Below, piece after piece: positions 7,055-55,201 of a stretch of 64,000 bases of DNA. How positions within the stretch are numbered: the first letter of the stretch is position 1; the number at the start of each line of letters is the position of its first letter. This DNA is from Candidatus Spongiisociaceae bacterium. GTDB taxonomy: Bacteria; Actinomycetota; Acidimicrobiia; Spongiisociales; Spongiisociaceae. The DNA is taken from NCBI GenBank assembly GCA_965219685.1, contig CBDCOH010000002.1, positions 1,024,001 through 1,088,000 of the forward strand. The letters run 5' to 3'. The notes under the pieces were generated by a model, which saw only the letters and a program-made list of their open reading frames with translations, did not search any database and had not been told where the DNA came from. Position numbers and translations under genes: made by a program.

Positions 7055-7186
7055 CCGGATCCTCTTCAGACGCAGGGGATGCTACCCACTGCCCTGCGAT
7101 CCGTCACCTGCCACCACCCGACTCCGCTCTCGTCCGGGCGTTAGGATCACCGGCAGACGGATCGAAATCGGGTGGCTGGAGGGTAT

Positions 7187-7627
7187 ATGAAACGCGCAGT
7201 GATTCCGGCGATGGCCCTCCTGGTCTTCACAGCGTGTGGCGGCGACTCCAGTCCGGACACAACCGCCACGACATCCGCACCCACCACCACTCGGTCGGCG
7301 CCCAGCACGACGCTGCCGCCCACGACCGTGGTGGCGCCCACCGACGGACTTCCGGATGAGTATCCGCCCGAGTTGGTTCCGCCCGGCGTGATATCCGTCT
7401 ACTGGGAGCCCACCGGAGCGGGAACCGACGTCTTCTTCGAAACCTCGGCCGGTTTCGAGGAGCTGATCGACTTCTACACCAATGCCCTGGAGCCGCCGCT
7501 GGATGTGCGGACGGAAGACGGAGTGGACCGGGCCATCTGGGTCTACAAGCCGGGCGTGGAGCACATCACGGTGATCCTGGAGTCAGACTCGGAAGGCATC
7601 AGCCTCAAGGTATCGGGCCTGTTTTGA
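7187..7627 (+). CDS. Hypothetical lipoprotein
   Basis: GGAGG RBS, MKR...FTAC lipobox, Thr/Pro linker. Confidence 0.8.
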   Translation: MKRAVIPAMALLVFTACGGDSSPDTTATTSAPTTTRSAPSTTLPPTTVVAPTDGLPDEYPPELVPPGVISVYWEPTGAGTDVFFETSAGFEELIDFYTNALEPPLDVRTEDGVDRAIWVYKPGVEHITVILESDSEGISLKVSGLF

Positions 7628-7628
7628 G

Positions 7629-7668
7629 TGGTGAATGGTGAATGGTGAATGGTGAATGGTGAATGGTG
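7629..7668 (+). repeat. Heptamer tandem array (TGGTGAA)~5.7 directly after a stop codon
   Basis: Direct reading of sequence. Confidence 0.97.
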
Positions 7669-7673
7669 GTAAG

Positions 7674-7741
7674 TCTTGAGGGTATCCGACTACTGAGCTA
7701 GGACAGGACCACGGTGAGCCAGGTGGTAGCCGTTCACTGGC
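7674..7741 (+). repeat. 68-bp dispersed repeat core, copy A
   Basis: 55/68 identical, ungapped, to 33050..33117; both follow a TGGTGAA array. Confidence 0.9.
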
Positions 7742-7820
7742 GCCTCGTGAAGATCTGGTCGGGTACCGCGGGCAGCCCCCTCGCTGTCTGCGGCGGTCCG
7801 GTTATACTCGGGCGCCGCCC

Positions 7821-7905
7821 GTCGGAGTGGCGGAATTGGTAGACGCGCTAGGTTGAGGGCCTAGTGCCCTAAAAGGGCGTGGAGGTTCGAGTCCTCTCTC
7901 CGACA
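7821..7905 (+). tRNA. tRNA-Leu (GAG)
   Basis: Acceptor gtcggag/ctccgac, anticodon arm ctagg-ttGAGgg-cctag, long variable arm, GGTTCGAGT T-loop; TATACT -10-like hexamer at 7803. Confidence 0.97.
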
Positions 7906-7910
7906 CCTCA

Positions 7911-7940
7911 TTCAGGTGCCAGGTGTTCAGGTGCCAGGTG
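7911..7940. repeat. 15-bp direct repeat x2 (ttcaggtgccaggtg) built from CAGGTG(C) units
   Basis: Direct reading; lies between the tRNA 3' end and a convergent gene. Confidence 0.8.
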
Positions 7941-7959
7941 CTGTCACATTCCGGCCGAC

Positions 7960-10311: not shown

Positions 10312-10402
10312 GGAACGGTCAGTGGTCAGTGGACGACGATCCTGTCACCATTCACCATTCACCATTCACCATTCACCATTCACCATTCACCATTCACCAT
10401 TC
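10312..10402 (-). repeat. Heptamer array (TGGTGAA)~8 after the livF stop, 12-nt spacer, then counter-oriented CCACTGA/CCGTTCC units
   Basis: + strand ggaacgg tcagtgg tcagtgg ... (ttcacca)n at 10345..10402. Confidence 0.92.
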
Positions 10403-17139: not shown

Positions 17140-17143
17140 TGAG

Positions 17144-17174
17144 TAGTTCCTAGTTGGTAGTTGGTAGTTGGTAG
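17144..17174 (-). repeat. Heptamer array (CCAACTA)3 GGAACTA between four-helix gene stop and secG start
   Basis: + strand tagttcc (tagttgg)3 tag. Confidence 0.93.
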
Positions 17175-17525
17175 TCAGCGAAGTGCTCGCTTGAGCCCGG
17201 TCAGCATCTTACCAACCTCGTCGCTACAGACCAGGGCATGCTCGATCTCCTCGTCCTTAGCCATTCCCAGACGGACCGCCAGGATCAGAAAGGTTTCGGT
17301 CTCCGCTAGCGATCCGCTTGCGATCCCTAGAAACTGCCGGAACTCCCTGGTACCGCGCCGTGCCGCCCCTTCGGCGATGTTCGCCGCGATCGAGCACGCA
17401 GACCGGCGCACCTGCACCGTCATCCCGTACTCCTCCGAAGATGGGAACCGGGCCGAAAGCTGATACACCATCTCAGCAAGATCGAGCGACTTCCGCCAGA
17501 CCGCCAAATCCTGATAACTACCCAT
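17175..17525 (-). CDS. Four helix bundle protein (23S rRNA IVP family)
   Basis: SYQDLAVWRKS, FPSSEEYGMTVQVRRSACSIAANIAEG, FLGIASGSLAE; TATAGT hexamer 7 nt before ATG. Confidence 0.95.
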   Translation of the reverse strand: MGSYQDLAVWRKSLDLAEMVYQLSARFPSSEEYGMTVQVRRSACSIAANIAEGAARRGTREFRQFLGIASGSLAETETFLILAVRLGMAKDEEIEHALVCSDEVGKMLTGLKRALR

Positions 17526-17562: not shown

Positions 17563-17597
17563 TCAGCTAGCAACCACCAACTAGCAACTACCAACTA
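17563..17597 (-). repeat. Heptamer array TAGTTGG/TAGTTGC x5 starting at the gpmA stop codon
   Basis: + strand tcagcta gcaacca ccaacta gcaacta ccaacta. Confidence 0.9.
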
Positions 17598-29995: not shown

Positions 29996-30027
29996 CCATT
30001 CACCATTCACCATTCACCATTCACCAT
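29996..30027 (-). repeat. Heptamer array (TGAATGG)~4.5 directly after the uvrA stop
   Basis: + strand ccattca x4 ccat. Confidence 0.95.
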
Positions 30028-32844: not shown

Positions 32845-32903
32845 CGTGCCCGGGTGGTTTGCTGGGGGAAGCGGTGGTGGCGACGCCATGGTAGTGGCTG
32901 GTG

Positions 32904-33043
32904 GAATGGTGAATGGTGAATGGTGAATGGTGAATGGTGAATGGTGAATGGTGAATGGTGAATGGTGAATGGTGAATGGTGAATGGTGAATGGTGAATGG
33001 TGAATGGTGAATGGTGAATGGTGAATGGTGAATGGTGAATGGT
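32904..33043 (+). repeat. Perfect heptamer array (GAATGGT)20
   Basis: 140 nt of perfect repeat. Confidence 0.98.
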
Positions 33044-33049
33044 ACCAAC

Positions 33050-33117
33050 TCTTGACGGTACTCGACTACCGAGCTAGGACCCGGCTGCGACGAGCCAGGT
33101 GGTCGCCGTTCACCGGC
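33050..33117 (+). repeat. 68-bp dispersed repeat core, copy B, ending in and followed by ccgttca/ccggcaa/ctggcaa heptamers
   Basis: 55/68 identity to 7674..7741. Confidence 0.9.
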
Positions 33118-33158
33118 AACTGGCAACTGGCTGGCTGACCGCTGCTCACTGGAACACT

Positions 33159-33173: not shown

Positions 33174-36100
33174 GTGAACGGTTCGGATCAGTATGTGGTC
33201 TTCGACTTGGAGACGAACGCGGACCGGCCCGAGGCGGCCGAGCACGAAATCATCCAGATCGGCGCGGTTGCGGCGTCGGCAGCCGGTGAGTTGGATTCGT
33301 TCGAGAGTTTGGTCCGGTCGCAGCGGAGGCTGCCGCCGAGAATCACCGAGCTGACCGGATTGGAGTACGGGGACCTTGCCGGTGCACCCTCCCTCGAGCA
33401 GGTACTGAGCAGCTTCTTCGGCTGGGTGGGTGATCGGCCGTTGATCGCTCACAACGGTTTCGGCTACGACTTCGAGGTCCTCGACGCGGCCGCGGCTCGG
33501 ATCGGGCTCGCTCCACCGGCCGGGCCTCGTCTCGACACCCTGGAGTTGGCGCACCTCGTGTTTCCCAGGGCCGGATCGGCGATCCCGGGCGTGGACGGCA
33601 GCACCCCGCCGGCGGGTAGGAGCCTCGATCAGCTGGCTCACCTGTACGGGGTTGCGGGCCGGGACCGCCATGACGCATTGAACGACTCGCGGATGACCCG
33701 GTCGGTCATGGTCGGACTGCTGGAGGACATGGACCGGGCCACGCCGGCGCGGCGCCTGCAGCGATGGATCCTCCGAGTGGCGGGTCATCCGTGGTCCCGG
33801 TTCCTGGCTCCGGAAGCGGAGCCGCCCTCTCTCGCAGAGGTGGTTCCCCCAGCGGCCGCGGGCGCCCGCTCGCCGCCCACGGGGCGTTTCGACATCGGGA
33901 CGGTGGTCCGGTCCTTTCAAGCGGGTGGCCGCCTGATGACCGGCGCCAGGACGCCTCGCCCCCAGCAGGCCGAGATGGCCGGACTGGTGGCAAGAGCCTT
34001 GTCGAGTTCCGGCTCGCGCTGGATGATCGAGGCGCCGACCGGTACCGGCAAGACTCTCGCCTACCTGGTCCCCGCGATCGAGATGGCAAGAGCGTCCGGC
34101 CGTACGTCGGTTATCACCCCGCACTCCCGGGTGCTGCAGGACCAGATCCTGGCAACCTTGGAGGAACTGAAGGAGGAGATCGGTCCGTTCTCGACGGTGG
34201 TGCTGAAGGGACGGCAGAACTACGTCAGTCTCAAGGCGCTCGATGCCGAACTCGCCGGCCTGGAAGGTGAGTCGCGGCGGAATCCCGCCCTGAGCCCCGT
34301 TGCGCTATCCCTGGCCATGATTAGCGGTTGGGTGTCGGAAACCCCGACCGGTGATTGGGCCGACCTGCGAACGGCAGCGGTTGCTGCCCGGTTGCGTCCC
34401 CTGCGGTTCTTCCGGTGGAAGCTCCGGGTCAACACCCGCCCGGGCCTGATTCTGACCCCCCTCGACGCACTCGACTTCCATCGCCGGGCTTTGCAGGCCG
34501 TCAAGACGGCCCACGTGGCGGTCCTGAACCATGCGCTGCTGGCCACGGGTCCGGAATTGGAGGAGAACCGCTTCAACCTCGTGATTGACGAGGCCCACGG
34601 CCTCGAGGACTCGGCCACCGCGGCGGCCACGCTGGAGGTGAGTAGAGAACAACTCGAGCAGTTGTGCGACGCCTTATGGGACGGCCGGGTCCGGCGCGGT
34701 CTCGCGGTGAGGCTGGCGACCGCCACCGGAGCGGGACTCAGGGACCCGAGGATCGACAGGATCCGGACCGCGACGGCCGCAGCCCGGGTTGCCGTCGAGC
34801 GCTTCTCGAACCCCCTCACCGACTACCTGCGTGACCGGACCGGGGTGTCACGGGAACAGGCGGTCCGTTACGGCGCCGCGTACCGCATCCGCCGGGGAGT
34901 GGACACCCGCCACCCCGCATACCGGGAGGTCCTCAGGACGGGTGGCGCCCTGAGGAACGCGTTGCGCCAGGTGGTCGGAGCCCTCGATGGGATCACGGTG
35001 CCGGAGAAGCCGGCCGGCCGCTACCGCCGCGACGCGTTGGAGGACGAGATATACCGTCTCGTCCGCGAAGTCCGGGATGCGGACCGCCTCGTCGACTCGG
35101 TTCTGCGGGCTGCCGGCCAGCTGCGTCTCTTCGACGACCACCTGGCCGAGCATGAGTTGGTCGAGTGGATCAACGTAGCCGAGGTCTCCTTCGAGGCCAC
35201 CGAGGGCGGAGTTCCTGAGGAGGATCTCGATAGCGCTGCGGCGAAGATCCCGCCGGGACGATGGCGGTGGGCGCTGCGGCGCGCTCCCCTCTCGGTGGCG
35301 GGGCTGCTGGCTGATCTTTGGGATCGGGCTCACGCGGTGTTGCTGACCTCCGCCACCCTGCGTTCCGGTGACGACTTCGGCTACCTGGTCGGTCGGCTCG
35401 GACTCGGCAGTGCGGAGTCCAGGGTGATCGGCACACCCTTCGAGAGGCTCTCCGAGCAGCACCTGCTTCTGCTGACCGATTACCTGCCGGCTCCCCGCGG
35501 TGGGCTGATGGACCGCTTCACGGAGATTGAAGCCACGGAGATCCCTCGACTCTTCGTTGCAGCAGATGGCGGGGGGATGGCTCTGATGACGGCGCGCAAC
35601 CGGCTCGACTACGTTCGGGACCACTCCCGTCCCCACCTGGCCCCGCTGGGAATCGAGTTGCTGGCGCAGGGAGACGCATCGTCGCCGGTTCTGGTCGAGC
35701 GGATGCGAGACAACCAGCCGGCATGCCTCCTGGGACTCAGATCCTTCTGGGAGGGCGTTGACATTCCGGGGAACGCCCTCAGGCTGCTGCTGATCGAGAA
35801 GGTGCCGTTCGACTCGATCGGCGATCCTGTCGTGAGCGCCCGGACGGAGTTTCTCGAGCTGGCGGGGCGGGATCCCTTCGCCGAATACATGGTGCCGAGG
35901 GCGGCCATCGCCTTCGCACAGGGTGTGGGACGGCTAATCCGTAGGGAGGACGATCGGGGAGCGACCGTTGTGCTCGACAACCGGCTGCGCCGCCCGGTTC
36001 CCTACCGCGACGTTCTGCTCCGCAGCCTCTCCGGGCCACCTGCCCGGAGGGACATCGATACTCCCGGCGAGGCGTACGCGGCGATTACTGACCATCTGGA

Positions 36101-38294
36101 CATCGCCCTCGACTCGGATCGGTGGGAACGGATCGGGCGGATCCCGGGTGTCGAGACGCTGTCCCGTGCTGCACTCGAGGTGGATGGGGACGACCTTTCC
36201 GACGGGGAAGCCATCGACCGGGTCTTGGAGACAGCCCGGGAGTGGCTGGGATTCGACAGGTGGCGCCCCGGCCAGCGGAGGATCATGATCCGTTTCATGC
36301 GCGGCGAGGACACGGTGGCTGTTCTCCCGACCGGCTCCGGGAAGTCCGTGACCTACCAGATACCCGCCCTGGTGTCGCCGGGCGTGACGTTGGTGGTGTC
36401 GCCGCTCATCGCGCTGATGCGGGACCAGGTCGACAACCTGCGCGCCCGTGGGGTCACCGAAGCCGCCGCCATATATGCGGGGGTAGGTCAGGCGGAGCAG
36501 GAGGCGATCCTGCGGGCGGCGGCGGCCGGACACATCAAGCTGCTGTACGTGAGTCCGGAGCGGCTCTGGTCTCCGGTGTTCCGGTCGTGGCTGGCGGGTG
36601 TCGACGTGGCCCGCGTGGCGGTGGACGAGGCCCACTGCATATCGATGTGGGGTCACTCCTTCCGGCCGGAGTACGCGATGATCCCGAGGGCCATCGCCGA
36701 AGTGACCGGCGGCCGCTTGCCCGTTCTCGCCGTGACCGCGACCGCTACCTCCGAGGTGCTGGAGGACATCCGTGAGTTGCTGGGAGTGTCGGCGGAGCCG
36801 CTGGTCGGTTCGGTCAACCGACCGGAAATCCGCTACTACGTGGAGCGGTGTAGCAACAGGCGGGACCGGGAGCTCCGGGTGGCGCAGGTGGTGGAGGCCT
36901 TTCGCCGGAAGAGCGCCATCGTCTACGTCCCGAGGGTCAGGGACACCACCCTCCTGTCGGGCTTGTTGAGGACCTTCGGTCATCGGGTCCGGCCATACAA
37001 CGGCGAGATGGAGTACCCGGAGCGCCAGCACACCGAGGACGCCTTCCGCCACGGAGAGATCGACGTGGTGGTGGCCACCAAGGCATTCGGCCTCGGCATA
37101 GACAAGCCTGACATCGCCCTCATCGTGCATCTGGAGATGCCTGCCTCGATCGAGGAGTACGTCCAGGAGACGGGACGGGTGGCTCGTGGCGCAGCCGATG
37201 GCAGCGGGCCCGAGACCGGAGCGGCCGTGCTGCTGGTGACCCCGAGGGATTGCGGCATCCACGACTTCTTCGTGAAGTCGTCGGTTCCCAGACTCGACGA
37301 CATCCGGCGCGAATGGAACAGGCTCGACGTCGGGATGAACTACATCGATCCCGGGAGCGAGGCATCCCCGGCCGGGGACGCGGGCGGCGACCGGGATCAG
37401 GCCAGGGCGCTGGCCCTCCACTACCTTGACCAGGTGGGAGCGCTGCGGCGGCATCGCGACTTCGTCCTCCGCGGGCGGATATCCGTCCTGGAGGATACGG
37501 AGGGACGGATGAGCGATCTCCGGCTCCGGCGGCCGGATCTGGCGCGCCGAGCCGAGTCGATCGTCGGCGATAAGGTGGCGGGTTCCCGCGACTACCACGG
37601 CCTCCGGGCGAGCGAGAGGCTCGACATGGACCCTCCCGAGATCGAAGCTGTCCTGTTCGAACTCCAGAAGAGAAGTGTCTGCGGTTTCACCGGCTGGAGG
37701 TACGGGTGGAGTTTCGAGCGTCGGGCCGGAATCGAACCCGACTGGCACCTTCTGCGGAGCCTGATCCGCCAGCGGCGCGAGACGATGGAGGAGAGGGCTC
37801 GCCGCGCACGCCGGCTGGCACATGGTTTCCGGGGGTGCCGCCGCCGCGAGATGTTGCGTTACCTGGGCGAGCCTGATCCGGCCTTCGGGGTGTGTGGCGG
37901 GTGCGATGCCTGCACGCCTGACCTGCCCCGCCCCTGGGAGCGGATCGATATCCGGGCCTCCGACGTGCGGGACGCGATCCAGGAGACCGCGCTGGTCACG
38001 ATCCTGCTGCTAGTCGACGATGTGGAGCGGGGCCGGTTCTCCCGGTCGAATCTGGTCCGGGCGTTGCGGGGCGATGGCGGAGGGCCTCACCCGCTCCCCC
38101 GCCAACTCCTGCTGCACGGTTGCTTCGATCGCCTGGGGATGCTTGAACGGCAACAGGTGGATGAGTTGGTGGACGACGCGATCCGCGACTGCCGCATCGA
38201 AGAGGTCGAGGTGGCATACGACGGTCGCGTCTACACGAGCCTGTGCTTGACCGCCGACGGCCGGGAGCTCCTCAGGGGCCGCTACGCGGGTTAG
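33174..38294 (+). CDS. DEDDh 3'-5' exonuclease - DinG-like SF2 helicase - RecQ helicase fusion
   Basis: FDLET/HNGFGYD/HDALND; [30 protein letters not shown]; [37 protein letters not shown]...CGGCDAC. Confidence 0.92.
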
Positions 38295-45889: not shown

Positions 45890-45993
45890 GTGAATGGTGA
45901 ATGGTGAATGGTGAATGGTGAATGGTGAATGGTGAATGGTGAATGGTGAATGGTGAATGGTGAATGGTGAATGGTGAATGGTGAATGGTGAAT
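45890..45993 (-). repeat. Heptamer array (TTCACCA)~15 immediately upstream of the uvrB -10-like hexamer
   Basis: + strand (tgaatgg)n; TACTCT at 45884..45889, 6 nt from ATG. Confidence 0.97.
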
Positions 45994-50967: not shown

Positions 50968-51064
50968 GCCCGTGGCTGGTGGCTGGTGAGTTGATGGGCT
51001 GATGGCAGTAAGCGAGGTATGAATAACCCATATTAACGAATATAGACGGTCACCGGCCACGGGC
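50968..51064. repeat. Inverted-repeat element with TGGCTGG-type heptamers and an AT-rich core
   Basis: gcccgtggctggt (50968..50980) vs accggccacgggc (51052..51064), 12/13 complementary. Confidence 0.7.
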
Positions 51065-55164: not shown

Positions 55165-55201
55165 TCACCAACCAGCAACTAACACTAGTAACTAGCAACT
55201 A
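55165..55201 (-). repeat. Degenerate TAGTTGC heptamer array overlapping the trpA 3' end
   Basis: - strand ttagttgc tagttac tag tgttagttgc tggttgg tga. Confidence 0.75.

Follow-up and report, generated by a model that had tools for sequence, protein, structure and literature searches.

The window analysed here, a 64,000-nucleotide stretch of DNA taken as a whole, contains two similar non-coding segments, each attached to an array of the heptamer TGGTGAA. They raise the question of what this 68-bp core is and how it came to be located in unrelated surroundings. The first-pass annotation had interpreted the pair as a non-autonomous mobile element or a structured RNA with a repeat tail of variable length.

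Two similar cores in the window

Copies A and B of the core (Table 1) align without gaps and are identical at 55 of 68 positions, which is well above chance (BLAST E 1.5e-11). Seven of the 13 mismatches are located in the central 11 nucleotides, at core positions 32–42. The preceding arrays, delimited with TRF, contain five and 19 perfect units, and their overall sizes agree with the approximately six and 20 units initially reported. The contexts are also as first described, with core A upstream of a tRNA-Leu gene and core B between uvrA and a gene encoding an exonuclease-helicase fusion. The fusion protein (33174–38294, 1706 residues) combines a DEDDh exonuclease with two helicase modules that have DinG-like and RecQ-like domains. 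Among 23 loci read, it adjoins uvrA only in the genome of the window (G000) and in its relatives G001, G002, and G007.

Table 1 Positions of the cores, heptamer arms, and associated features within the window.
Feature	Position	Strand	Remark
Left arm of island A, (TGGTGAA)n, 6.3 copies	7625..7668	+	Begins at the stop codon of ORF 7172–7627
Core copy A	7674..7741	+	Leading strand; CCGTTCAC at 7730–7737 may be read as the first degenerate right-arm unit
Segment of about 200 bp: promoter, tRNA-Leu (7821–7907), heptamer array	7747..7945		Inverted relative to 5/5 relatives compared
(CAGGTGC)n array	7911..7941	+	Probably the original right arm of core A, moved off by the inversion
Downstream heptamer arm of IVP cassette	17143..17175	-	Between IVP gene and secG
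Four-helix-bundle (IVP) gene, PF05635, TIGR02436	17175..17543	-	Between gpmA and secG
Upstream heptamer arm of IVP cassette	17567..17597	-
Left arm of island B, (TGGTGAA)n, 20.6 copies	32899..33043	+	Divergent intergenic region of uvrA and the helicase fusion
Core copy B	33050..33117	+	Leading strand; G002 and G001 lack a core at the site
Right arm of island B, (GGCAACT) x2.4	33115..33131	+	Polarity opposite to the left arm

Heptamer islands and the core family

The genome of the window (4.42 Mb, with a main contig of 65% GC) contains 325 exact arrays with a period of seven, compared with eight of period 5, 17 of period 6, and 0–2 of periods 8–12. A looser scan finds 382 heptamer arrays, which form 308 islands, 55 of them with both arms. 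In a heptamer island, which is intergenic, a variable middle separates a T/G-rich 7-mer array from a C/A-rich one. The core is such a middle, located between 7-mer arms of opposite polarity: a T/G-rich array lies upstream of 30 of the 33 cores of G000, and a C/A-rich heptamer-like unit lies downstream of 27 of 33 in a loose motif test. Because of this downstream unit, CCGTTCAC is probably the first degenerate unit of the right-hand heptamer arm. TGGTGAR immediately precedes 26 of the 33 cores, and GTTGWCC-type arrays precede four. Most cores of the relatives have left arms of the GTTG type, which are near-complements of the right arm, or of other types. Most TGGTGAR arrays lack a core.

Arrays without a core are present in the window at 10345–10402, 29996–30027, 45890–45993, 50972–50988, and 55169–55201, and the site of the array at 50972 is occupied by a core in G002. 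Elsewhere in G000, an array of 55 units (C2:647843–648226) consists of a TGGTGAG block followed by a TGGTGAA block, and G002 has a core at this site as well. With the terminus of C2 placed at 1.150 Mb, the T/G strand is the leading one in 61 of 82 TGGTGAG arrays and in only 27 of 102 TGGTGAA arrays, a strand bias in keeping with a G+T drift of the leading strand. Despite the GC content of the genome, the middles of many islands are rich in AT. In or next to several islands and cores (C2:3481170, 2495997; L082; L133; L163), a short element end recurs that contains five consecutive C or G; it is possibly the end of an IS or MITE.

Iterated nhmmer searches of G000, continued to convergence, identify 33 core copies at E ≤ 0.01 and 37 at E ≤ 1, and a sequence-only model also gives 33. 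The pairwise identity of 30 aligned copies has a median of 69% and ranges from 48 to 96%. The 5′ end of the core is fairly constant (AAC-TCT), and GGT at alignment columns 14–16 is retained in 33–35 of 35 rows. LD decay gives a weak hint of patchwork exchange among copies (p 0.05). Half-cores exist in G000 and in relatives. At one orthologous site, the core is reduced to its 5′ half in G000 (C2:3169403) and to its 3′ half in G007 (L217). Two small spacer families within islands, one at C2:70925, 2011919, 2575290, and 2769306 and the other at 3345574, 3667073, and 3703431, resemble the 3′ and 5′ halves of the core.

Core relatives are found in five further genomes of the same family. The core model matched eight of 29 family genomes, and six were left after the removal of matches inside genes (G021, G024, and one in G026): G000, G002, G007, G023, G026, and G027, which are kin and not independent. 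Matches dropped as coding or spurious are L078, L079, L083, L207, L214–L216, and L219, and ten of the weaker matches were examined. A sample of 132 genomes from other families yielded no core. Exact-pattern scans gave 0 and 1 matches in genome contigs and none in metagenomes or viral contigs, with close genomes possibly outside the scan. Of the two array patterns tested, genera g2–g6 have none or almost none, and G001 and G003–G006, which lack cores as well, have few. All genomes with cores are rich in arrays and contain IVP genes or remnants of them, and cores come and go between close relatives.

Orientation relative to replication

The cores are oriented with respect to replication. With the terminus placed at the maximum of the keto skew (1.265 Mb), 31 of the 33 are on the leading strand (p 1e-7), and with the terminus at the maximum of the GC skew (1.150 Mb), 30 of 33 are; dnaA is positioned at the GC-skew minimum. 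The leading strand contains 56% of the genes predicted by a gene caller made for the analysis. The gene downstream of the core is co-oriented with it in 16 cases and opposed in 17 (n = 33); therefore, transcription does not explain the orientation of the core. Copies that are 89–92% alike are found on opposite arms and opposite absolute strands of the genome.

The same polarity recurs in the relatives, where all 15 cores at independent sites are on the leading strand. Independent sites (11 + 4) are those not orthologous to a core of G000, with tandem or shared copies counted once, and five orthologues of G000 cores were left out of the count. The strand was assigned from its own dnaA in G002, whose seven cores are all on one replichore, and by synteny with G000 in the fragmented genomes. 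Two cores on one contig of G007 switch strand across the terminus. The two small spacer families are also on the leading strand (4/4 and 3/3), but these are not independent tests because of their likeness to the halves of the core. A MITE-like family beside arrays is not oriented; its array-side ends are on the leading strand in 15 of 25 cases.

The two wrong-way copies of G000 are old and among the most diverged, with nearest copies 63% and 67% identical. Large inversions were rejected as the cause, because the regions of both copies are collinear with those of relatives. Core similarity has no correlation with replication timing (p 0.25) and a weak one with distance (r 0.13, p 0.02). Sister-fork exchange between copies is therefore unsupported.

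Exchange of island content at orthologous sites

Cores of relatives occupy sites at which G000 has islands. An array is present in G000 at seven of 11 sites of relative cores, against a background of 13.8% (240 of 1736) among intergenic regions at least 100 bp long (p 2e-4). A common site could also reflect the joint arrival of a core with its arms and the later loss of the core. At site B, the orthologous positions of two relatives lack a core (Table 1), and G007 contains a different island. At site A, the contigs of one sample break at the array, and the empty allele is not shown, which proves nothing either way.

Site A has been rearranged. The tRNA-Leu gene and its promoter are reversed relative to all five relatives compared, and one breakpoint lies directly behind core A; BLAST covers the inverted segment at 7747–7925, and its right end is approximate. 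The heptamer array of the segment is located just inside the far end. G007 has an island with a short middle at site A, and for this reason the (CAGGTGC)n array is probably the former right arm of core A.

Island middles are exchanged while the sites persist, and the position orthologous to a core is usually occupied by an island of different content. An IVP gene, an IVP remnant, an AT-rich spacer, a core, or almost nothing may be found between the arms, and the arm units are exchanged too while islands persist at orthologous sites. Middles have also been swapped at both wrong-way core sites. The exchange can be followed between gpmA and secG, where G000 has an IVP cassette with two heptamer arms (Table 1). 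The protein matches PF05635, TIGR02436, and PDB 2GSC, with Avd below the cut-off. Among 28 gpmA-secG loci read, four contain full-length IVP cassettes, some of them damaged, and three contain deleted ones. In G023 and G027, a core in antisense orientation adjoins the decayed 3′ end of the IVP gene, most of which has been replaced, and G024 and G025 have, by eye, what resembles a shorter piece of it. Two loci contain other fillers, which have no match among the remaining sequences compared, seven are empty and free of arrays, and the rest are rearranged or have other insertions.

Arrays are visible by eye at nearly all of 28 IVP loci inspected. A second IVP gene of G000 (C2:3558603–3558894, L002) is frameshifted and also lies between heptamer arms. 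Both IVP genes of G000 and both of G002 are on the lagging strand. We know of no function for the IVP family.

Proposed route of spread

The core is dispersed, has a fixed polarity relative to replication, and occupies island sites of relatives. We read it as a passenger spacer of heptamer islands that is spread by strand-conserving, fork-coupled recombination, an interpretation that we consider about equally likely to be right or wrong. By analogy with oligonucleotide recombination (PMC2920528), the spread may be a single-strand copy-and-replace process that uses array homology at the replication fork and proceeds without a transposase. A single strand containing the core and its arms, either a displaced nascent strand or an excised loop, would anneal through its arrays to another island exposed at the fork, most likely on the lagging-strand template, and the incoming core would take the place of the middle of the target island. 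Donor and target would be on the same replication strand, so that descendants would retain the orientation of the founder. The arrays would then lengthen and shorten through slippage, which is consistent with the differences in array length, and the IVP protein may assist, in a role that is predicted. Because arm units differ between copies and sites, the homology available for annealing would be short.

Several points count against the passenger interpretation. No intermediate or event has been observed, and the two wrong-way copies lie in collinear regions. Both IVP genes of G000 are on the lagging strand, and homology of the core with the IVP gene or its leader was not found. Selection after unbiased insertion would yield the same orientation.

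Marks of mobile elements and their enzymes

The core could instead be the orphan non-autonomous element of a fork-targeted enzyme that has been lost or is unrecognised, by single-strand transposition of the IS200/IS605 or REP type, retrohoming similar to that of group II introns, or recombination of the attC type, possibly with the participation of the IVP protein. Taken jointly, these routes appear unlikely. Routes of this kind produce exactly such an orientation bias, according to the accessible part of PMC5027513, and replication-tied orientation, a trait of IS200/IS605 and REP/RAYT, holds for the core (31/33; 15/15). The constant 5′ end and the restriction of cores to array-rich genomes with IVP genes or remnants also fit an enzyme route. 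Against these routes, neither a subterminal DNA hairpin of the IS200/IS605 or REP/RAYT kind (fold z near 0) nor a consensus fold was found. As to terminal inverted repeats, the consensus fold has no end-to-end pairing and the alignment no complementarity. The attC site of integrons is an imperfect palindrome that folds into a long hairpin, and no such hairpin was found in the consensus or single-copy folds. Words of at least 5 bp are common to the outer ends in six of 30 copies, compared with 4.2 in shuffles (p 0.21), so the target-duplication check gave no support, in a test whose power is low since the core ends are fuzzy.

Y1 HUH transposase (PF01797) is absent from 5/5 genomes searched. 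The only reverse transcriptase (RT) of G000 is split over frames (C2:102982–103497, L193), lies beside a transposase-like fragment, and reads like that of a group II intron; G002, which has cores, has no RT. The original view of the core as a non-autonomous mobile element stands loosely, in that cores are dispersed and present or absent at orthologous sites, but the core bears no mark of a transposase.

A possible directional site

The orientation could also be under selection if the core were a directional DNA site read by a replication, segregation, or repair protein. KOPS, Chi, and Ter are sites of this kind. The strong, transcription-independent polarity that recurs in relatives and the well-kept GGT at columns 14–16 agree with such a role. 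By contrast, after coding matches are dropped, cores are present in only six of 29 family genomes and in none of 132 genomes from other families, copies differ by about 30% and are gained and lost between close relatives, half-cores occur, and Tus (PF05472) is missing from 5/5 genomes. We consider a directional site rather improbable.

Origin of the core sequence

A derivation of the core from the IVP coding region was rejected, because the likeness failed a profile test. Antisense core scores against 28 IVP genes equal those against 60 control genes (p 0.56). Sense scores are slightly higher against the IVP genes (16.5 versus 14.4 bits, p 4e-4), but the matches are scattered, and upstream DNA was included in the IVP set only. 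Comparison of the core with the IVP leader gave three nominal p ≤ 0.05 in 28 tests, in both orientations.

The core contains two TTG-17-TA spacings, and it could be the promoter stub of a deleted cassette gene, with two units of a TTG hexamer, 17 bp, and TA, whose fork-opposed copies were purged. In 16 of 35 rows, a spacing of 17 bp separates TTGACG or TTGAGG from the first TA, and the 3′ TGTGGTA is similar to a motif that other families have just ahead of their IVP start codons. In many IVP leaders of other families (L014–L041), TG-n-TA is seen by eye at approximately -16 to -12 relative to the start codon, and the final T of the -10 element is lacking; these leaders are perhaps weak leaderless promoters. 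However, leaderless promoters of the host need TAnnnT (peak of 59–98 against a background of 1–20; TAnnnV gives no peak), and none of the 35 cores has a TAnnnT -10 element at either unit; an active promoter was rejected on this ground. The leader homology is limited to the scattered nominal matches in both orientations, and the flanking genes are indifferent to the core. A promoter stub is very improbable.

A match to decayed coding sequence had been named at the outset as evidence against a mobile element or structured RNA, and one is possibly present in the 3′ half of the core. This half matches the antisense strand of a dihydroorotase/allantoinase-like cyclic amidohydrolase gene of G021, with 28 identical bases out of 36 (32.0 bits) and an expectation per genome of 7e-4 under a codon-aware null and of 0.03 from a cruder tail fit; about 180 genomes were searched, and the window of comparison was picked after the match was seen. 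The best such score in G000 with cores masked is 19.8. The match includes 15 G/C third positions in succession. All eight mismatches are at codon positions 1–2, which counts against capture. Nine orthologues score 9–27 and eight paralogues below 2, and no orthologue was found in G000, G002, or G007. According to local skew, the amidohydrolase gene is on the lagging strand in four of five genomes; therefore, its antisense would be leading. Judged from these alignments, the 3′ half of the core may equally well be a captured antisense amidohydrolase fragment or a chance likeness. The core is probably functionless junk confined to one family of Acidimicrobiia; that it combines the lack of a function of its own with a 3′ half from a captured gene fragment is less sure.

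RNA structure and array growth

The structured-RNA reading finds no support. RNAalifold predicts no pairs on 35 copies, and an Rfam search gave nothing credible on the window (gathering score) or at ten copy loci (E ≤ 1). RNA sequencing runs contained only 0.06 of the sequence words looked for. With z-scores calculated using RNA energy parameters, cores A and B fold on the plus strand at +1.16 and +0.52 relative to shuffles, and single copies have a mean near 0 on both strands (35 copies), with one and two of 35 below -2 on the two strands. The stem noted earlier in copy B is part of its minimum-energy fold, but folding of the cores is not more stable than that of shuffles. Pairing cells of this stem amount to 70.8% (shuffles, 71.7%), and one of its pairs is disrupted in 31 of the 34 rows. 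An alternative register pairs no better than shuffles, and covariation of three candidate stems is at or below that of shuffles. When folded together with the array, copy A has a z of -3.0, which counts against a reading without RNA, and copy B of -1.55. Adenine-specific mutagenesis similar to that of diversity-generating DGR systems was not detected (A>G 0.118, T>C 0.115; no bias).

The idea that a repeat tail was added from a template is not supported, because the same core follows GTTGWCC-type arrays in four copies and other heptamers in the relatives, and the abundance of coreless TGGTGAR arrays weakens it further; CCGTTCAC is therefore not the template of the array. A retro-element or structured RNA that serves as the template for TGGTGAA addition in the manner of telomerase or DRT10 is hardly credible: CCGTTCAC can pair with the array, TGGTGAR lies directly upstream of 26 of 33 copies, and the z of copy A with its array is low, but consensus structure, covariation, and an intact RT were not found, mean folding of 35 copies is neutral on both strands, other heptamers adjoin the same core, and most arrays are coreless.

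Relation to known systems

Very short dispersed repeats of cyanobacteria without transposase signatures, in genomes rich in heptamers, have reportedly been described by Elhai and colleagues. Many bacteria have an excess of heptamer repeats for which no cause is accepted, according to the accessible part of PMC4692102. The inverted heptamer pairs of Xanthomonas and Nostoc described there (GGGNATC type) are similar to the islands in that they are intergenic 7-mer arrays, often form convergent pairs, occur in the same gene context with changing length, and are not tied to insertion sequences. They differ in that the units here are not of the G-quadruplex type, and the accessible passages of PMC4692102 describe neither a repeated, replication-oriented middle nor an exchange of content between islands. 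In the IVS (intervening sequence) found in Coxiella 23S, heptamers precede the ORF, as stated in the available portion of PMC4990558. The four-helix-bundle cassettes (IVP / S23p) share the arm-middle-arm build, and in G023 and G027 the core lies at a site of the IVP cassette; unlike these cassettes, however, the core has no ORF and no detectable IVP homology, and it is antisense to the IVP remnant.

IS200/IS605 and REP/RAYT elements, as covered by the accessible part of PMC5027513, share the fork-tied orientation and the lack of target duplication, but the core has no subterminal hairpin, its host has no Y1 enzyme, and its targets are heptamer islands. Oligonucleotides directed against the lagging-strand template recombine 3–50-fold better, also without RecA (PMC2920528, accessible part), and the spread of the core would resemble this process in short-homology annealing, lagging-strand bias, and independence of a dedicated enzyme. 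Oligonucleotide recombination, by contrast, is a laboratory process with supplied oligonucleotides, and no natural repeat family spreading in this manner was found in the literature searched. DRT10 (10.1101/2025.10.16.682844), in the portion available, is similar only in having short tandem repeats that adjoin a non-coding element; it requires an RT and a structured non-coding RNA, neither of which was found here.

No description of the core repeat or of oriented island middles was found in a literature search that left out supplements and most subscription papers. Inverted heptamer pairs (PMC4692102) and heptamers beside the IVS ORF (PMC4990558) are already in print, as far as the accessible parts of these papers go. 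As far as we know, the following are new: the orientation at independent sites across genomes, the exchange of content between gpmA and secG, the inverted segment next to copy A, and the possible derivation from a gene.

Implications for heptamer islands

Bare arrays cannot reveal how heptamer islands move. The core is an asymmetric tag within the arrays, and it therefore records the strand and the target of each event. This record consists of the same replication strand, a pre-existing island, and no mark of a transposase, and the spread of heptamer islands becomes testable through a marked cassette. A more general proposal, which we regard as doubtful, is that the islands are a transposase-free, fork-coupled copy-and-replace system, possibly chaperoned by an Avd-like pentamer of the IVP protein, that captures arbitrary DNA between the arms, in this case part of an amidohydrolase gene, and spreads it to further islands in a strand-conservative manner. 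If this is true, copy-and-replace islands would account together for the excess of 7-mers in bacteria, for IVP cassettes that come and go, and for the oriented repeat.
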